Assembly (NCBI RefSeq): GCF_030013205.1
Contig: NZ_CP122648.1
Reading direction: 5' to 3' (one strand)
DNA from: Escherichia coli
Lineage (GTDB): Bacteria > Pseudomonadota > Gammaproteobacteria > Enterobacterales > Enterobacteriaceae
Length of the DNA: 64,000 nucleotides
The position numbers and the translations under genes are program-made. This document shows, in pieces, positions 28,641 through 52,700 of this stretch (position 1 is the stretch's first letter; the number at the start of each line of letters is the position of its first letter). The notes beneath the pieces were generated by a model. That model made no database searches and had not been told where the DNA came from. It was given only the letters and a program-made list of their open reading frames with translations.

Positions 28641-30434
28641 TTAACGCACCTGCACGGAGATCAGCTCGCTACCGTCGTCGCCCAGCACGTGTGTTGAACA
28701 GGCGAGGCACGGGTCAAAGCTGTGCAGAGTACGCAGGATCTCCAGCGGTTGCTCGGGGATCGCCATTTTGGTGTTCATCAGCGCCGCTTCATAAGCGCCA
28801 ATTTGCCCTTTAGGATCGCGCGGGCTGGCGTTCCAGGTGGTCGGCACCACGCACTGGTAGAGATCAATCTTGCCATCGCGAATGGCGGCCCAGTGGCCTA
28901 ACGCTCCGCGCGGCGCTTCGGTAAAGCCGACACCACGGCACTCTGTCGGCCAGGTTGCTGGTTCCCACTTCTCAGTGGAGGCGGTGGCGAGATTGCCGTT
29001 TTTGAGATTGGTCATCAGCTTGTCGAAGAAATACTGCAACTTACCTGCGGCCCACTGCGCTTCGTGCGCGCGACACAAAATGCGGCCCAATGTTGACTGG
29101 ATGCCGGAAAGCGGTAGGTTCAGCGCCGACATCATGCGATCGACCGACTCAACGGTCGCCGCATCGCCTTTGTGATAAGCGATTAACGTGCGTGCCAGCG
29201 GCCCCACTTCCATCGCGTTACCGCGCCAGCGTGGCGCTTTGATCCACGAGTAGCGTTCCTGTTCATTCAGCTGCTGAATGTTGGTATCGCTGCCTTTGAC
29301 ATCGCCGGGGTTGTACCACGGGTCGGTGATGCCATCGAACGGATGATGCCCGACCTGATCGTTGGGATATCGATACCAGGCGTGGTCGACAAACTCCTGC
29401 ACCTGCTGCGGATCAACCAAATCCACTGGCAGCACATTGTTGAAGTCGCCGTTAATCACCGCGCCGCCAGGCATCAGCAGACTTTTCTCGCCAAAGTCGT
29501 TGGCAATATCCGGGAATGCGCCGTAGCTGAGGACACATTTATCAGAAAGACCCGTGCCGATTTCGCTCCACGGTTTGTTGAACTGACCAATGGCTAAGGC
29601 GTCGGGGATCATCACGTTGTTAATGAAATCCGCCGTACGGGTAATGATTGACTGCACCAGGTTCAGGCGTTCCATATTGACCGCCCCGACCGCGCCGCTT
29701 TCGTCAATGTTAATGGCGCAAGGCATCCCGCCGACAATCCAGTTTGGATGCGGGTTTTTACCGCCAAAGACCGCGTGGATTTTGACAATTTCACGCTGGA
29801 AATCGAGAGCTTCGAGATAGTGGGCAAAGCCCATCAGGTTGGCTTCTGGCGGCAGTTTGTACTGCGGGTGCCCCCAGTAGCCATTGCGGAAGATCCCCAA
29901 CTGCCCGCCTTCAACGAATTTCTTCAGGCGGTTTTGTACGTCGAAGAAATAGCCAGGGGATGATTTCGGCCATGAGGAGAGACTTTGCGCCAGTTCGGAG
30001 GTTTTCCGCGGATCGGCTTTCAGCGCATCTAACACATCGATCCAGTCCATCCCGGCAAGCTGATAAAAGTGCACCAGATGGTCATGGCACCAGAGCGTCG
30101 CCAGCATAATGTTGCGGATGATATTAGCGTTGTCCGGCACTTTAATACCAATGGCATCTTCGATGGCGTAAACCGAAGCCAGAGCGTGTACGCCGGTACA
30201 GACGCCGCAGATACGTTCAACGAACGCCCACGCATCGCGCGGGTCGCGCCCTTGCAGGATGATCTCCAGCCCGCGAAACATGGTGCCGCAGGAGACGGCA
30301 TTGGTGATCACATTCTGATCGTTAATATTCACTTCGCAGCGCATGTGGCCTTCAATGCGCGTAATCGGGTCGACCACCAGGCGGCGTCCGGCATTATTGA
30401 TGGTGTATCCCTGAGTTTCGTACTGAGTGCTCAT
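28641..30434 (-). CDS. hyaB: HyaB [NiFe] hydrogenase-1 large subunit
   Basis: 597 aa; N-terminal [10 protein letters not shown] and C-terminal DPCLACSTH Ni-binding motifs. Confidence 0.96.
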
Positions 30435-31549
30435 GCCTGTTTATCCTCATTGCCTGGCTGATGTTCGGTTTCTGTAGGTTGCTGGTTATGACGTCTGCGC
30501 TGGTCAACGGCGCTGGCGACTGCGTGCACACCAACAGCCGCTGCCACCACGCCAAGCGCGGTTAAACCGACGGTGTCGGCGGTGGAATGAGTTCCCATTT
30601 GCGGAATATCGACCACGCGACTGTAGAACGAACCGCGATCCCAGAAACCATTTTCCGCACAGCCCAGGCAGCCGTGACCAGACTGGATTGGGAAAGAAAC
30701 GCCATCATTCCAGCGTGTGGAGGAACAGGCGTTATAGGTGGTAGGCCCTTTGCAGCCCATTTTGTACAGGCAGTAACCTTTGCGGGCAGCGTCATCATCC
30801 CAACTCTGCACGAACTCTCCGGCGTCGAAGTGGGCGCGGCGATAGCATTTATCGTGGATTCGCTGACCATAGAACATCAACGGACGGCCCATTCTGTCGA
30901 CATCTGGCAAGCGATCAAAGGTCACCATGTAAGTAATGATGGCGCTCATCACATCCGGGATCGGCGGGCAGCCAGGTACTTTGATAATAGGTTTGTCGGT
31001 GATGACTTTGTCGATAGGCGTTGCCTGCGTCGGATTGGGTCGCGCGGCCTGCACGCAGCCCCAGGACGCGCAGGTTCCCCAGGCGATAATCGCACTGGCT
31101 CCGGCAGCAGCACGTTTGAGTTTCTCAATAAACGGTCGTCCGCTGCTGATACAGAACATCCCCTGCTCGCCCAGCGGCGGATTACCTTCTACTGCGAGGA
31201 TATATTTGCCATTGTATTGCGTGATGATGTCTTCAAAGACTTCTTCCGCCTGGGTTCCGGCGGCAGCCATCAAAGTATCGTCATAATCGAGGGAAATCAG
31301 GGAAAGGATGACGTCCTTCGCCAGTGGGTGAGCGGAGCGGATAAAAGATTCGGTACAGCAGGTGCATTCCAGACCGTGGATCCATACCACCGGAATGCGC
31401 GGTTTGTTCTCCAGCGCCCAGGCAATCTTTGGTGCCATTCCCGCGCCTAATCCCAGCGACGTGGCAGCCAGACTACAATATTTGAGAAAGCTGCGCCGGG
31501 TAACGCCCTGACGCCGCATGGCCTGGTAAAATGTTTCCTCGTTATTCAT
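30431..31549 (-). CDS. hyaA: HyaA [NiFe] hydrogenase-1 small subunit
   Basis: [29 protein letters not shown]at signal; 372 aa. Confidence 0.95.
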
Positions 31550-31975
31550 ATCGCACGTCTCTTCTCCTTGCGACACCGGCAGGACACCGGGCGCACATGG
31601 TCGGCAAGCGACGTCCCTGTAGCAAGGCAAACCATCGCTTCACGTGAGATGCTGAAAACGAAAGCTCATCCTTCTGCACTGGCGCACGTCGCCAGAAAGT
31701 AATGTTAATAAAGCGTAGTGAAACTTTTGCACAAAACAATACAAACTGTGTGGATTTATCTTTTAGCGATAAAAATGGACCTATTTTTCTTTTTGCCGGG
31801 CGGTGGGGATGTTTAGCCAGTTGCTAAACGAGTAAAAGAGAAGGAATTCATGGTGATGAAATGATCAATCTGCTGTTATTTCACGCTATCAATGCACTTT
31901 TGGCTGTTTTTCAGGCAAACAAACAAATTAGGGGTTTACACGCCGCATCGGGATGTTTATAGTGCGCGTCATTCC

Positions 31976-32063
31976 GGAAGTGTGGCCGAGCGGTTGAAGG
32001 CACCGGTCTTGAAAACCGGCGACCCGAAAGGGTTCCAGAGTTCGAATCTCTGCGCTTCCGCCA
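31976..32063 (+). tRNA. serT: tRNA-Ser (anticodon UGA)
   Basis: GGAAGTGTGGCCGAGCGGTTGAAGGCACCGGTCTTGAAAACCGG...CGCTTCCGCCA, long variable arm, CCA encoded; 3' half lies in prophage att core. Confidence 0.95.
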
Positions 32064-32071
32064 AATAATCA
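32004..32071. repeat. Prophage att core copy, serT 3' half (attL)
   Basis: 68-bp identical to 52435-52502. Confidence 0.85.
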
Positions 32072-32105
32072 AGGGGTTACCAAATGGTAACCCCTTTGCT
32101 TTTTG
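32072..32105 (+). terminator. Intrinsic terminator after serT, supplied by prophage-side DNA
   Basis: Stem AGGGGTTACC / GGTAACCCCT followed by T-run. Confidence 0.7.
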
Positions 32106-32107
32106 GG

Positions 32108-32140
32108 CTCTTGGTATAAACTTGGTATACCAATTGGTAT
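32108..32140. promoter_or_regulatory. Three direct repeats TTGGTATA, candidate integrase arm-type sites
   Basis: CTTGGTATAAACTTGGTATACCAATTGGTATA next to attL; the same octamer recurs near attR at about 52321. Confidence 0.4.
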
Positions 32141-32326
32141 ATTTTCTGCCAAAAAATTCCTAAAATCCCCTCCAGCACAAACAATCACTTGCTCATTCAT
32201 ACTTTATCAAGAAAATATCCTTGCAAGTTATGTTGTTTCTTTCTGCGTCCCGACAGGGTGTCATGGTTCCCCACTTCTCTCGGGATGGACACTTAACGGA
32301 CGAGAAATTTTCAGGTGTCATTCAGA

Positions 32327-32365
32327 CGCGCTTCGGCCCCGGATTGGCGAAGCGCGCTTTTTTTC
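32327..32365 (+). terminator. Strong intrinsic terminator inside prophage end
   Basis: Stem CGCGCTTCG(GCC) / (GGC)CGAAGCGCG followed by TTTTTTT. Confidence 0.6.
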
Positions 32366-32511
32366 TCAGATTATTTCGTTTTGCCTGAGTGTTGAATAAC
32401 GCCACTACAGTTATATAAGCTGGAAATCATTCAATACTCGCACTATCGAAAGTTCACCAGCCAACCGCAGCACGTACTGCATACGTCGTGTCTGCGGTTT
32501 TTCTTTTTCAC

Positions 32512-32878
32512 TTACATTGTGTCTGGTTCTTCCGGCCACACAATATCCGGTGCTACTGATGTATCAACACGGTTCAGCAACACCCGATACTTTTTCCAGG
32601 CTTCCAGCAACGAGTTTTCTTCCTCCGTTGCGATCTCCAGATCTACAGCATCCTGAAGTGGCGCAATATGCTCACTGGCTACCTGCATCAGGCTGTTTTT
32701 TGTTTCTTCCGCCTCCCGGATCCGGAACAGTTTTTCTGCTTCTGCATCTTTCACCCAGGCTGTGCCGTTCCACTTCTGAAACTCCCCTTCCGGCGATAAC
32801 CAGGTAACATTTTCCGGTAACGGACCGAGTTCAGAAATAAATAACGCGTCCCCTGACGCTACGTCATAAACCGTTTTG
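32512..32878 (-). pseudogene. Tail fibre assembly protein (Tfa) C-terminal remnant
   Basis: ...[57 protein letters not shown]...[18 protein letters not shown] matches recalled Tfa family; N-terminus missing, fused at a deletion to stf remnant. Confidence 0.75.
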
Positions 32879-33710
32879 CAGATTTGTCAAAAGTCTGCCC
32901 CTGCATCAGGGCATAACCAGACGGAACGGTATTTGATGGCCACGGGATTGGTGCACCGACTGGGTAGCTTTCTGGTGGAAGATTTTTCGAGGTATAAACT
33001 TCTGCCCAGTCTTCCTCAAAACCATAACCGTCTCTTGAAGAACGGTAGAACAGACCACCATTTCTGTAATGCGCCTTCATCTGCAGGGTCCGGCAACTTC
33101 CGACTCCGGTATAGAAGTTAACCAGAATATAGCTGTTGCCTGTCCGGGTGACATTGTATGCACCAGATTTAGCATTCCACGGAACGCCTCCCTCTGACTC
33201 TGCGTGCACACCAGACGATCCAAGAGCAAAAGCAGAGACATCTGCAGCGGACAGCCTGATGTCTGATTTCAATGCCTTACCATTCACCTTACGACCAGAT
33301 GGAACCCGGTCATTTGCATTATCATTCACCGCTTTCACCGCCATTGGTGTTGCCGCCAGCGATTCACTGTCACTGTCCGTGGCACTGCTGAGCTGTACCA
33401 CCCCCTTTCTCGTCGTGCTCGCATCCTCTAGCGCCACGGCAGATGCAATATCCTCTGCCCGTTTTGCTGCTGTCTCGGCACGCGTTGCTGCAGATTCCGA
33501 CGTACTTTTGCTCTGAGCTGCCGCTGTCGCACTACCAGCTGCCTCTGTCGCCTTCGTGGATGCCGTCGTGGCACTGACCTTCGCCTCTGACGCCTGTCTT
33601 ACCGCCTCATCTTTTGAAGCAGACGCCGATGATGCTGATGACGCCGCCGAACTGGCGGACGATGCGGCTGCCGTTTCTGAGGCTCCTGCGCGGGTTGCCA
33701 CTTCCGTCAA
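32859..33710 (-). pseudogene. Side tail fibre (Stf) remnant
   Basis: Ala/Ser-rich repeat region then ...[16 protein letters not shown], after which the frame diverges into the tfa remnant. Confidence 0.65.
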
Positions 33711-34582
33711 CCAGGCTTATCAGCGTGGTGCCGGAGGATGGCAGCGTGATTTCACGGTCGAGCGTCAGCGTCCGGGTCTGGCTGTTCACCGCCAGCACGC
33801 GCCCGCCGGTGCTGATACCGGCATAGTCATCATCGCAGATTTCAATGACATCGCCCGGTACATGGCGAAGCCCTTCGGCACCCACGCTGAAGTCCACGGT
33901 CTGCGTTTCCAGCAGTTCTGTTTTAATCAGCCACAGCCCGGCGCGGTGCGCCTGCCCCCGGCTGGTACAGCCAAACGCATCCATCTTCGTGACGTTACGA
34001 CCGTAACGGGCAATGGCCTGCGAGTCCTCCACAAGCTCTGTCGCCGTCTCCTGGCCGTTATCCGGGTCAATCCAGTTCACTTCAACGGCATTATGGCGGT
34101 CTTTCAGGGCGCTGAAGCTGTAGCGGAATGGTGCGCCATCATCCGGCATCACCACATTACTGCGGTTATAGGTCCACACCTTATCCGACGGTCGGTCCTG
34201 CACGAACGTCAGCGTCTGCCCGTTCCATACCGGCATACAGCGCATCGCCGAGCAGAAATCACTGAGCACATCCCAGGCCTTGCGCTGTGTGGTCAGGTAC
34301 GCATTACAGGCGATGCGCGGCTCCGTGCCGCCAAAGCCGTCCGGCACCGACTGGTCGCAGTACTGGCCGATGACATACAGCGCCCATTTGTCCACATCCG
34401 CCGCACCAAGACGTTTCACTGTCCAGCACCGGCGTACTGTTCAGCAGCACGCTTTTTAATCCCTCCACCGGACCTTCTATCGGCCCTTCGCTGATGGCAT
34501 CAATCACACTCAGCAACTGCGTGGATTTCAGATTGTCCTTCGCTTCTCGCGGGGTATGCCCCTTACTGCTGCCTTTACCCAT
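33607..34582 (-). pseudogene. Lambda J-like tail tip protein remnant, frameshifted and internally deleted
   Basis: N-terminal ORF MGKGSSKGHTPREAKDNLKSTQLLSVIDAISEGPIEGPVEGLKSVLLNST as recalled for lambda J, then a second overlapping frame; about 330 aa in total versus over 1100 aa for intact J. Confidence 0.7.
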
Positions 34583-34642
34583 TCGTCATGCTCCATAAAC
34601 GACAAAACCGCCCGCAGGCGGTTTCACATAAAACATGTTGTA

Positions 34643-35140
34643 TCAGCGACCAATCACCACAACCTGACCACCATCCCCTTCGTCTGCCGTGCTGATCTCC
34701 TGAGAAACCACCCGCGACCCCACGCGCATTTCACCGTACAGAACGGGCAGAACATTGCCCTGGGCAACCATGTTATCCAGTGAGGAGAAATACGTATTCT
34801 GTTTGCCGTTATCCGTTGTCTGTGTACGGGGGGTTCTGGGTTTAGGGGCCAGCATCTGTGCAACACCGCCAAGCGTCATACTGGCACCGAGAGAAAACAG
34901 CAGATTGCTCGCCATAATTCCTACCCCCGGCATCCATATAGCAACCGCCATAACAGCAGCGCCCAGCACAGCCTGAAACACTCCGCCACTTTTAGCCCCA
35001 GCCAGACGCGGCACGATGTGGATCACGGCACCATTCGCCAGCGGTTCATTAAGACGGGCTGATAATTCTGTTTCACCGGCATCATGCCCGGCAATGCGTA
35101 CCTGATACCAGCGATGCGATATCCTGCTGGTGGATGAATG
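34643..35140 (-). pseudogene. Lambda I-like tail assembly protein, N-terminally truncated
   Basis: ...WYQVRIAG...GAVIHIVPRLAGAKSGGVFQAVLGAA...EISTADEGDGGQVVVIGR matches recalled gpI C-terminal two-thirds; in-frame stop upstream near 35150. Confidence 0.7.
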
Positions 35141-35447
35141 AGAGAATCTTCACCGACACCACCGATACCAGTACCGCACAAAGCGCGTCGAGAGATGTGC
35201 TGTGGAGATTCAATTTTTCGACCAGCCAGGACGCAAGGACATCCGCCCCCAGCACGCCAACAATGAACGACACCAGAAAATGCGCCGCCACACGCCAGAC
35301 AGAAATCACCTGTGGCATCGTGGCCACAAACAACGCCCCGGCAAACGCGCCAAACACAATCCCGAAATCCGTCCCGGTAAACAGCCCGAATACCGTCGCC
35401 CCGCCGAGCGCCACAGCAGTGCTGGAACCGGATAAGGGTTCAGACAT
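35082..35447 (-). CDS. Hypothetical multi-TM membrane protein (holin-like), 3' end overlapping I remnant
   Basis: MSEPLSGSSTAVALGGATVFGLFTG... three to four hydrophobic segments; no recognisable K motifs. Confidence 0.35.
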   Translation of the reverse strand: MSEPLSGSSTAVALGGATVFGLFTGTDFGIVFGAFAGALFVATMPQVISVWRVAAHFLVSFIVGVLGADVLASWLVEKLNLHSTSLDALCAVLVSVVSVKILSFIHQQDIASLVSGTHCRA

Positions 35448-35646
35448 ATTTATTCTCCTGTAAATAAAAAGGACCATCAGCGGCCCCGTAACTGACATTT
35501 TATTAACGTTTGAAGATATGGATATTTATCAGGGTTTACCGTTTTCTGAACCCTGGATATGTTAAGCATTCAGCCGGCCAGTGGTGGGACGCTGGCTCAT
35601 CATAGAGAAAGAGGGATGGCTGATTACCTCTGATCAGGGAAATCAC

Positions 35647-35916
35647 ATGCAGTTTTTACATAAAAGAATGCATTTAAATGCAGGAGATACGGTAGTGGTT
35701 GACTGCTCTCATCAGTGCAATATTTTGCTGATGACAGATACAAACTTTAATAACTACCGCAACGCAAGAAGCTTTCATCATCACGGTGGTGGCGGTTTTT
35801 TTCAGAGATTACCGGCCCACCTTCATGTACCGCATTCAGGTTACTGGAATATTACAATTGATTTAGGAGGCGGAAGTGCAGCTATTCGGCACTCCATTTC
35901 CGTCATCCCAGCATAG
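35647..35916 (+). CDS. Hypothetical protein
   Basis: MQFLHKRMHLNAGDTVVVDCSHQCN...HHHGGGG...; ORF followed by hairpin at about 35952-35983. Confidence 0.4.
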   Translation: MQFLHKRMHLNAGDTVVVDCSHQCNILLMTDTNFNNYRNARSFHHHGGGGFFQRLPAHLHVPHSGYWNITIDLGGGSAAIRHSISVIPA

Positions 35917-36227
35917 CAACTCGCCTTTAGCCTGAGTAAATGCGTCCTCAAGGACGGCAACGAGTCGCAGTTGCGTGCCGTCCTTTACACAGCGTGTGCA
36001 GGCAATACCTTCAGAACTTTCATTATGCCGAGCTCATACAATTTCACCATTTTGTTCAACTACAACGCTCATAATTTTCTTACACTTTTTTAATAAACCA
36101 CACCAATAACAACCATCACCGATACCTTTTGTATGCTGTTATTTTGCATTACGGTGTAACGGCAAGAGCCCCCTCCCCGCCCTGAAAGGCTCTGTGTTTT
36201 TGATGTGCGCCTGATGTGGCTCAGATA

Positions 36228-51053: not shown

Positions 51054-51305
51054 ATGTACGAATTAACTCTATCGCCAGCAGAGATTCAAGAGATCACGAA
51101 ATACGAGCGATACACAAAACAGCAACACCAGTTAAGGCTGCACGGTATCCCATTTGTAATCGGTCCTAAAAACGAACCAATAGTTCTTCGCAGGGATATT
51201 CCACACGGACTGACTACGATGCCAAAAGCACCTGAACTGGTTTCCGCTGAACCCGATTTTGAGGCGCTGAACAATGGGAAGACCAAGAAAAAACAAAAAA
51301 GATAA
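51054..51305 (+). CDS. Putative excisionase
   Basis: 83 aa ORF immediately upstream of and overlapping the integrase; call is positional. Confidence 0.45.
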   Translation: MYELTLSPAEIQEITKYERYTKQQHQLRLHGIPFVIGPKNEPIVLRRDIPHGLTTMPKAPELVSAEPDFEALNNGKTKKKQKR

Positions 51306-52293
51306 TGCACTACCACCGCGTGTTAGATCGAATGGTTACAGTTACGTATGGAAACCCGAAGGAAGCACAAGAACTATAGGGCTCGGAAGAGTGCGGGAAA
51401 CCAGCGTAGCTAAAGTCTGGCAAAATTATGAGCTGGAAAAAGCAAAACTCCACAACATAATGACAGTAGCTAAATTATGGCACATGTTTATGGACTCCCC
51501 TGCATTTACAGAACTGGCCCCCCGAACCCAAAAAGATTATCGGCAACATCAAAGGGCATTGTTGGCAGTATTCGGAAAAGTGCTTGCTGATAATGTAAAA
51601 ATTGAACAGGTAAGAATTTTCATGGATAAGCGAGGACTTGAGAGCAAGACCCAAGCAAACCATGAACTGGCAAGTCTGAGCCGTGTATACGGATGGGGAT
51701 ATGAGCGTGGGTATGTGAAAAATAATCCATGCAAAGGAGTCAGAAAATTCACACTTAAAGCCCGTACTGTTTACATCACCGATGAACAGTATGCTGCAAT
51801 ATATGCGGAAGCAATTCCACAGTTACGTATTGCAATGGAGATATCCTATCTTTGTGCGGCAAGGCTCGGTGATGTACTCGAGCTGAAATGGCAGGATATT
51901 ATGGAGAAAGGGATTTACATTGAGCAAAACAAGACCGGCACTAAACAAATCAAGGAATGGTCTCCGCGATTACGTACGGCGATCCAGTTAGCCCGAAATG
52001 TATCTTCCGGCACATGCGAGTATGTGATCAACACAACCAAAGGCGGGAAGGTAATAGCCAAGACGCTGAACAACTGGTGGAATCAGGCTAAACGTGCAGC
52101 CGAGCAAAAAGCCGGCGTTCCGTTTGGGTGCAACTTCCATGACATAAAAGCCAAAGGGATTTCACATTACGAAGGCAGCAGTCGCGACAAACAAATTTTC
52201 AGTGGACACAAAACAGAAAATCAGGTGTTGATTTACGATCGTAAAACCAAAATAACACCAACACTGGATTTGCCGCTTGTGGTCAGTAAGTAG
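51274..52293 (+). CDS. int: Phage tyrosine integrase
   Basis: 339 aa ORF 140 bp from the att core; C-terminal region with candidate catalytic residues (ARLGDVLELKWQDI; HDIKAKGISHYEG...LIYDR). Confidence 0.8.
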   Translation: MGRPRKNKKDNALPPRVRSNGYSYVWKPEGSTRTIGLGRVRETSVAKVWQNYELEKAKLHNIMTVAKLWHMFMDSPAFTELAPRTQKDYRQHQRALLAVFGKVLADNVKIEQVRIFMDKRGLESKTQANHELASLSRVYGWGYERGYVKNNPCKGVRKFTLKARTVYITDEQYAAIYAEAIPQLRIAMEISYLCAARLGDVLELKWQDIMEKGIYIEQNKTGTKQIKEWSPRLRTAIQLARNVSSGTCEYVINTTKGGKVIAKTLNNWWNQAKRAAEQKAGVPFGCNFHDIKAKGISHYEGSSRDKQIFSGHKTENQVLIYDRKTKITPTLDLPLVVSK

Positions 52294-52434
52294 GCAATAC
52301 AGAAAATTTTCTGGCAAAAAGACTTGGTATATTAACTCTGAATAACTCCCTAATATATTGATTTTTCTTGGTGTCAAGTCTGATTAACTTTTCGGATATT
52401 TTCCGTATTATACTGATTTTTCTTTATTTTTCTT

Positions 52435-52502
52435 CGGTCTTGAAAACCGGCGACCCGAAAGGGTTCCAGAGTTCGAATCTCTGCGCTTCCGCCAAATAAG
52501 AT
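52435..52502. repeat. Prophage att core copy (attR), partial serT 3' half
   Basis: 68-bp identical to 32004-32071, followed by a hairpin terminator AGGGGTTAG...CTAACCCCT + T-run. Confidence 0.85.
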
Positions 52503-52700
52503 AAGGGGTTAGCTAACTGCTAACCCCTTTTTCTTTTGCCTGTCGAAATTCTCAGGGCGTTATATTTGCTTAATGACCTGATAATCCGCTGTTAAACCTG
52601 TTCCAGATCAAATGCGTAAAGATGGGTAAAACTTCTGGGTGCCCTTACGCATTATCATTATGCTGCTTAATTAATTACATCTGTCATAGAGAGTGACTCA

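Follow-up and report, generated by a model that had tools for sequence, protein, structure and literature searches.

The window, that is, the whole analysed stretch of 64,000 nucleotides of Escherichia coli DNA, was 100% identical to porcine E. coli genomes, e.g. K_EC180. The tRNA-Ser(UGA) gene serT was located on the plus strand at 31976-32063 (ARAGORN, the Rfam tRNA family and the RefSeq annotation of identical genomes), and the minus strand carries hyaBA. A repeat search revealed a 65-nt exact direct repeat at 32004-32068 and 52435-52499, assigned to no strand, which represents the left and right copies of the att core. The core reaches from the serT anticodon stem to 5 nt beyond the 3′ end of the gene. 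Beyond 52499, the K-12 serT-yccA intergenic sequence resumes, including K-12's own serT terminator (52503-52529), and yccA follows. The 20.4 kb between the repeats contains, just inside the right copy, a Xis-like DUF4224 gene (51054-51305, plus strand) and a tyrosine integrase gene, int (51274-52293, plus strand), both transcribed towards the att core. Just inside the left copy, the tail fibre, J and tail assembly pseudogenes lie on the minus strand; the tail fibre assembly (tfa) pseudogene at 32512-32877 was taken from the RefSeq annotation of the identical locus and from the ORF list.

Because the core repeats are flanked by int/xis and by tail pseudogenes, the 20.4 kb is a degraded lambdoid prophage that has inserted into serT, in the 3′ half of the gene. 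The whole sequence from 32069 on, including the interval studied here (32106-32365), is phage DNA. The original prediction had placed the interval inside a prophage end, and the core repeat ending at 32068 bears this out. In Escherichia albertii, serT was reported as a prophage insertion site (PMC10673567). The analysis is of value chiefly for annotation: it gives the exact prophage boundaries, 32004/32069 to 52434/52499, identifies the present serT terminator as phage DNA and accounts for the TTGGTATA repeats described below as attP arm sites. We also observed a match to the Rfam family IS009 (RF02111) at 32555-32753 on the minus strand (223 bits), wholly within the tfa pseudogene; conserved tfa coding sequence may account for this 'RNA family' match. 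Elsewhere in the window, Rfam matched the cspA thermoregulator at 21009-21431 on the minus strand (156 bits), a match presumably due to a cold-shock gene's 5′ UTR and without relation to the interval, and the repeat search found two tandem 62-nt copies at 4561-4688, 66 nt apart and 73% identical.

The first feature beyond the core is a terminator hairpin on the plus strand, hairpin 1 (32071-32096), which with its tail TGCTTTTTGG occupies 32071-32105 and starts 3 nt beyond the core. It is a phage replacement of the serT terminator, and it also follows the core in the free phage Evi; the host's original terminator has been displaced to 52503-52529. The two hairpins have the outer stem AAGGGGTTA/TAACCCCTT in common, and their sequences are AAGGGGTTACC...GGTAACCCCTT in the phage vs AAGGGGTTAGC...GCTAACCCCTT in the host. 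The phage copy is thus a diverged one, placed just outside the 65-nt identity. Hairpin 1 folds with -18.8 kcal/mol (z = -4.2 vs shuffles) and its U tract is interrupted (UUUGCUUUUUGG), whereas the host serT terminator has UUUUUCUUUU and -21.3 kcal/mol. The terminator that now serves serT is therefore phage DNA, with a U tract poorer than the host's.

Hairpin 1 is followed by three direct TTGGTATA repeats on the plus strand (32111-32141), which begin at 32111, 32122 and 32134, i.e. 11 and 12 bp apart; one inverted copy overlaps them. The window contains six matches to the motif vs 1.26 expected, and none of the 100 shuffles reached six. A further copy lies at 52324-52331 in the integrase-side attP arm (52295-52434, plus strand), which also carries TTTTCTGGCAAAAA and was identified by sequence comparison with Evi and by motif counts. 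The Evi integrase is 99.1% identical to that of the window. In Evi, the int stop is followed without interruption by TTTTCTGGCAAAAA-gac-TTGGTATA, then by the 65-nt core seen in the window, by hairpin 1 and by three TTGGTATA repeats, and homology to the window stops right after the third repeat. The alignment shows 32069-32145 as the attP arm distal to int, comprising the phage copy of the serT terminator and the three phased repeats. Since TTGGTATA is a motif other than that of the core, recurs with a phasing of 11-12 bp, occurs in both arms and travels with the integrase, the repeats are presumed to be arm-type recombination-protein sites of attP. They would be bound by the N-terminal domain of the integrase, or possibly by Xis. 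The motif was not found in the aligned arms at potB, ompW, ydfJ and ssrA. The original prediction had correctly listed the repeats within the interval, and recognised neither them as attP arm repeats nor hairpin 1 as phage-supplied.

The third TTGGTATA repeat also gives rise to TGgTATATT (32135-32143, plus strand), an extended -10-like element found in a hexamer scan. It is the sole promoter-like feature pointing into the interval and a weak candidate, as its -35 scores 3/6. Its expected start site would be near 32150. A near-palindrome, TTTTCTG[C/G]CAAAAA, stands beside TTGGTATA in both arms (32142-32155 and 52307-52320), with three matches at ≤1 mismatch vs 0.13 expected; it was not counted as part of attP, because the int-distal copy is not conserved in Evi.

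Beyond the arm, a search of 5426 complete E. coli genomes located the segment 32152-32383 in 86, with 92-100% identity; it carries no annotation in any of them. It stands next to attP arms of four unrelated types, at serT, potB, ompW, ydfJ and ssrA (five att sites), always at the tail-fibre-side end of the prophage and in constant orientation. As the same segment stands beside unrelated arms, the alignments show it to be a non-coding module that is exchanged by recombination separately from the int/attP cassette. Its body (32152-32326, plus strand) is common to the prophages at all five sites, and indels that are not multiples of three occur among the copies (1-nt deletion at ompW, 20-nt at ssrA), together with 1-nt indels in the loop and the T tract of the terminator described below. 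The body had no match among 50,697 phage records, and a plasmid search gave no match to the module. Two scans of species-representative genomes detected no relatives, merely chance matches in unrelated phyla; a wider covariation analysis was therefore impossible. RNAalifold placed a long hairpin in the body, with a covariation term of a mere -0.36 kcal/mol; it was no more stable than shuffles in the window and was not relied on. In the ydfJ copy (strain 401651, locus 1816-3312), the module with its terminator abuts P2-like late genes (late control protein D and tail proteins X and U) and not lambdoid tail fibre genes.

The terminator within the module is hairpin 2 with its T7 tract (32327-32365, plus strand), co-directional with int. 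The 5′ arm CGCGCTTCG (32327-32335) and the 3′ arm CGAAGCGCG (32348-32356) form a stem of 9 bp, above which a bulged G, two CC/GG pairs and a 7-nt loop are predicted; the T7 tract occupies 32358-32364. The hairpin has an energy of -18.9 kcal/mol vs -13.4 ± 3.0 kcal/mol for shuffles. It was missed by a consensus terminator scan, probably because the perfect 9-bp arms, owing to the bulge, stand 12 nt apart and the loop limit of the scan is 8 nt. Of 17 distinct natural versions that we gathered, 12 were aligned. In these 12 variants, 90% of the cells pair, vs ≤52% with slid partners, and two stem pairs show compensatory C-G↔U-A changes. Hairpin 2 is thus a predicted rho-independent terminator. Three anatomical claims of the original prediction are confirmed here: a strong terminator ~260 nt past that of serT, a plus-strand unit bounded by two plus-strand terminators (the hairpins at 32071-32096 and 32327-32356), and a weak ORF that runs through the second of these (32103-32399, 98 aa, TTG start, the longest of the interval).

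Hairpin 2 is always preceded by the 19-mer TTTTCAGGTGTCATTCAGA (32308-32326, plus strand), also in a second, serU-type family. The stretch 32308-32506, which comprises the 19-mer, hairpin 2, a spacer and a conserved block, recurs with ~82% identity in serU prophages that adjoin zinT/yodB and carry cargo such as nleC, cdtABC or a GGDEF gene. In this family, hairpin 2 stands directly after the attP arm, the 175-nt body is missing and the tRNA fragment points away. Among the phage records, the hairpin 2 unit was present in ev099, mEp332 and PhiR70_1 only. The attP core of ev099 corresponds to the serU 3′ half in reverse complement, and hairpin 2 begins ~150 nt beyond it, in the same direction as int. 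In ev099 (NC_049953.1, locus 417-2892), int and the attP core are 2.4 kb apart, and the stretch between them contains transposase fragments and, on the opposite strand, an AraC-family regulator. In three IMG/VR UViGs, the hairpin 2 unit is joined directly to a sequence, ...CTAAATCAGTAAGTTGGCAGCATCACC, that looks like the region upstream of cat in Tn9/pACYC184; the junction may be engineered or IS-associated.

According to the alignments, a spacer (32366-32418, plus strand) separates hairpin 2 from a widely conserved block at 32419-32509 (plus strand). The block ends in hairpin 3 (32463-32499) with a T-rich tail, a third plus-strand terminator that abuts the tfa stop codon. This block takes most of the matches found in 3062 of the 5426 E. 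coli genomes, and it is also present in HK97, mEp460, phi80 and many Stx phages. Hairpin 3 folds with -19 kcal/mol (z = -3.9), and its homologue in lambda is kept between ea47 and tfa, with compensatory changes. We also noted that the ~90-nt block, unannotated, has an sRNA-like shape, with a GCUGG...CCAGC stem around ~33 nt and then hairpin 3, and that a weak promoter-like TTGAAT-16-TATAAG is located at 32392-32419.

The interval thus lies among three co-directional plus-strand terminators, the last of which is set against the convergent tfa. The explanation that we favour, with a confidence only slightly better than even, is that the interval, as the tail-fibre-side terminus of a decayed lambdoid prophage in serT, holds no autonomous gene: it would consist of an attP arm and a b-region remnant that ends in the terminator of a leftward transcript. 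This architecture is ordinary for a phage, and we saw no firm sign of a new RNA gene. The circular order is int (51274-52293, plus strand), the core and then 32069 onward; it is contiguous in Evi, and the arrangement is also found in ev099. In the excised circular phage, leftward transcripts crossing int and attP would run into these terminators, which would keep them from running antisense into the tail genes, in the geometry of lambda tI/sib. Integration would separate the terminators from int and put them downstream of serT. In the lysogen, they would act only as backstops for read-through past the interrupted U tract of hairpin 1. Since the prophage has decayed, the element in the present strain is probably a relic.

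Several points speak against this explanation. Hairpin 1 could stop most int transcripts, and hairpin 2 may then be redundant or serve another purpose. The account by attP arm and terminator gives no role to the 175-nt body upstream of hairpin 2. In ev099, the 2.4-kb gap between int and attP contains an opposite-strand gene, which makes it less than evident that hairpin 2 stops int read-through in that phage. Moreover, the left edge of the module coincides with the start expected from TGgTATATT, which lies ~7 nt upstream of it, and homology of the ydfJ copy ends exactly after the T tract; the module thereby resembles a unit of promoter, gene and terminator.

The last point leads to the reading in which 32150-32365 is an independent, horizontally mobile sRNA gene (a non-coding 'moron') of ~215 nt that ends at hairpin 2. 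We regard this reading as possible but doubtful. Equally tentatively, transcription might start from TGgTATATT or from equivalent -10-like hexamers in the other arms, and an unstructured A/C-rich 5′ part together with the U7 terminator might give the RNA the shape of an Hfq-binding RNA. Besides the two edges, the extended -10 matches 8/9, and its spacing to the first position of module homology is suitable. In three of the four unrelated arm types, the module start is preceded, at 14-15 nt, by the end of a -10-like hexamer with A2 and T6; for this we estimated, roughly and post hoc, a chance of ~0.01. The potB and ssrA copies are preceded, just upstream, by a further terminator-like hairpin. 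The first ~55 alignment columns of the module are predicted to be unpaired, and several G-U pairs favour the plus strand.

Nevertheless, the -35 is absent in every context, and two scans found no sigma-70 promoter at ≥9/12 on the plus strand inside the interval. No Rfam family matched the interval at E ≤ 1 (E-value scan of 29000-36000; the whole window was covered by a gathering scan), and the body folded no better than shuffles in the window (z = -0.14). The original prediction, which had suggested a small RNA or a leader driven by tRNA read-through, was accordingly right in its anatomy, whereas its small RNA gained no positive support from Rfam, the promoter scans or the fold. In addition, the putative promoter is always in the non-homologous arm, outside the shared module; the serU-type family has hairpin 2 and lacks the body; and Evi carries TGgTATATT without the module. 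The known prophage sRNA PasB was rejected as the identity of the interval, since it maps to the gpI-gpJ intergenic region, between tail genes I and J in E2348/69, and svsR was rejected likewise, being situated at the 3′ end of cI. A more specific version is distinctly less likely still: the ~215-nt 32150-32365 would be an unannotated mobile sRNA gene moving between lambdoid prophage ends and driven, in serT phages, by the extended -10, itself an integrase arm-type site, such that integrase occupancy of attP/attR would gate expression.

We consider it improbable that the interval is a 3′ trailer of serT, i.e. a read-through RNA that ends at hairpin 2 and is freed by tRNA 3′ processing, like a 3′ external transcribed spacer RNA. 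The sole good plus-strand promoter nearby is indeed that of serT (31935-31963, 10/12), and hairpin 1 is weaker than the host terminator in both U tract and energy. Hairpin 1 is still strong, however, with 11 bp. The module with hairpin 2 also occurs at ompW and ydfJ, and hairpin 2 occurs in serU phages, where no tRNA reads in; a serT-linked RNA would therefore be a by-product of insertion and not the function of the element. The leader driven by tRNA read-through fares no better: in serU phages the same terminator stands beside attP with the tRNA fragment pointing away from it, and tRNA read-through is therefore not the general purpose of hairpin 2. Finally, a small protein gene, or its decayed 3′ end, with hairpin 2 as its terminator is very improbable: a 58-codon open frame ends with TAA at 32294-32296, ~30 nt before hairpin 2, and ATG/GTG alternate at 32230, but none of the five ORFs of the interval had a match in Pfam or PHROG, the longest starts with TTG and passes through the terminator, the ompW and ssrA variants carry the 1-nt and 20-nt deletions, and the indels in the loop and T tract break the long ORFs.

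The attP arm and terminator explanation can be compared with several known systems. Like the lambda P1/P2 and P′1-3 arm sites, TTGGTATA is a short non-core motif present in both arms as direct repeats spaced by about one helical turn, and, as with arm sites of tyrosine integrases, it co-occurs with its integrase in a related phage. It differs in that the motif is unrelated to lambda's and in that its triplet belongs to the int-distal arm, the lambda triplet being on the int-proximal one. As in other tRNA-integrating phages that carry the 3′ part of their target tRNA, the 65-nt core equals the serT 3′ half plus 5 nt, and integration thereby restores the gene with phage DNA. Here, the phage additionally supplies a diverged copy of the tRNA terminator hairpin. 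With PasA-D, AgvB, AsxR and DicF, the Hfq-dependent prophage sRNAs of pathogenic E. coli, the interval shares an intergenic position in a lambdoid prophage and a U-tract terminator; it differs in having no sequence or Rfam match to them.

The closest comparison is with sib/tI of lambda and HK97. Lambda sib/tI lies beyond attP on the int-sense strand and is thus detached from int by integration (PMC5300877). It ends pI transcripts, and read-through pL transcripts form an RNase III site there, which lowers int expression (PMC5300877). Hairpin 2 likewise lies beyond attP, away from int, on the int-sense strand, and is separated from int by integration; like sib, it has a large hairpin loop and a T tract. 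In HK97, the depositors annotated sib immediately before the conserved block that here comes after hairpin 2. The differences lie in the hairpin itself. We found no similarity between hairpin 2 and the lambda/HK97 sib hairpins, and alignment similarity starts in the downstream block. The energy of hairpin 2 is -18.9 kcal/mol vs -28.2 kcal/mol for HK97 sib, and the extended duplex over the U tract, the RNase III substrate in sib, is lacking: upon folding 32322-32368, the U tract was unpaired, whereas it was paired in the HK97 sib control. The one helix that could form, GAGAAA/UUUCUC, is discontinuous, and the serU family lacks it. A sib-like RNase III duplex at hairpin 2 was rejected, as folding did not find it. 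Hairpin 1 stands between the core and hairpin 2, and an extra 175 nt precede the latter. If the terminator family or the 175-nt body regulated Int, or if it were an sRNA, it would represent a second solution to sib's problem; the present evidence does not demand that reading. Hairpin 2 is a positional and probably also a functional counterpart of tI, and we do not regard it as a member of the sib family. It represents an unannotated terminator family that, from sequence comparison, takes the position of lambda sib in a subset of E. coli prophages and differs from sib.
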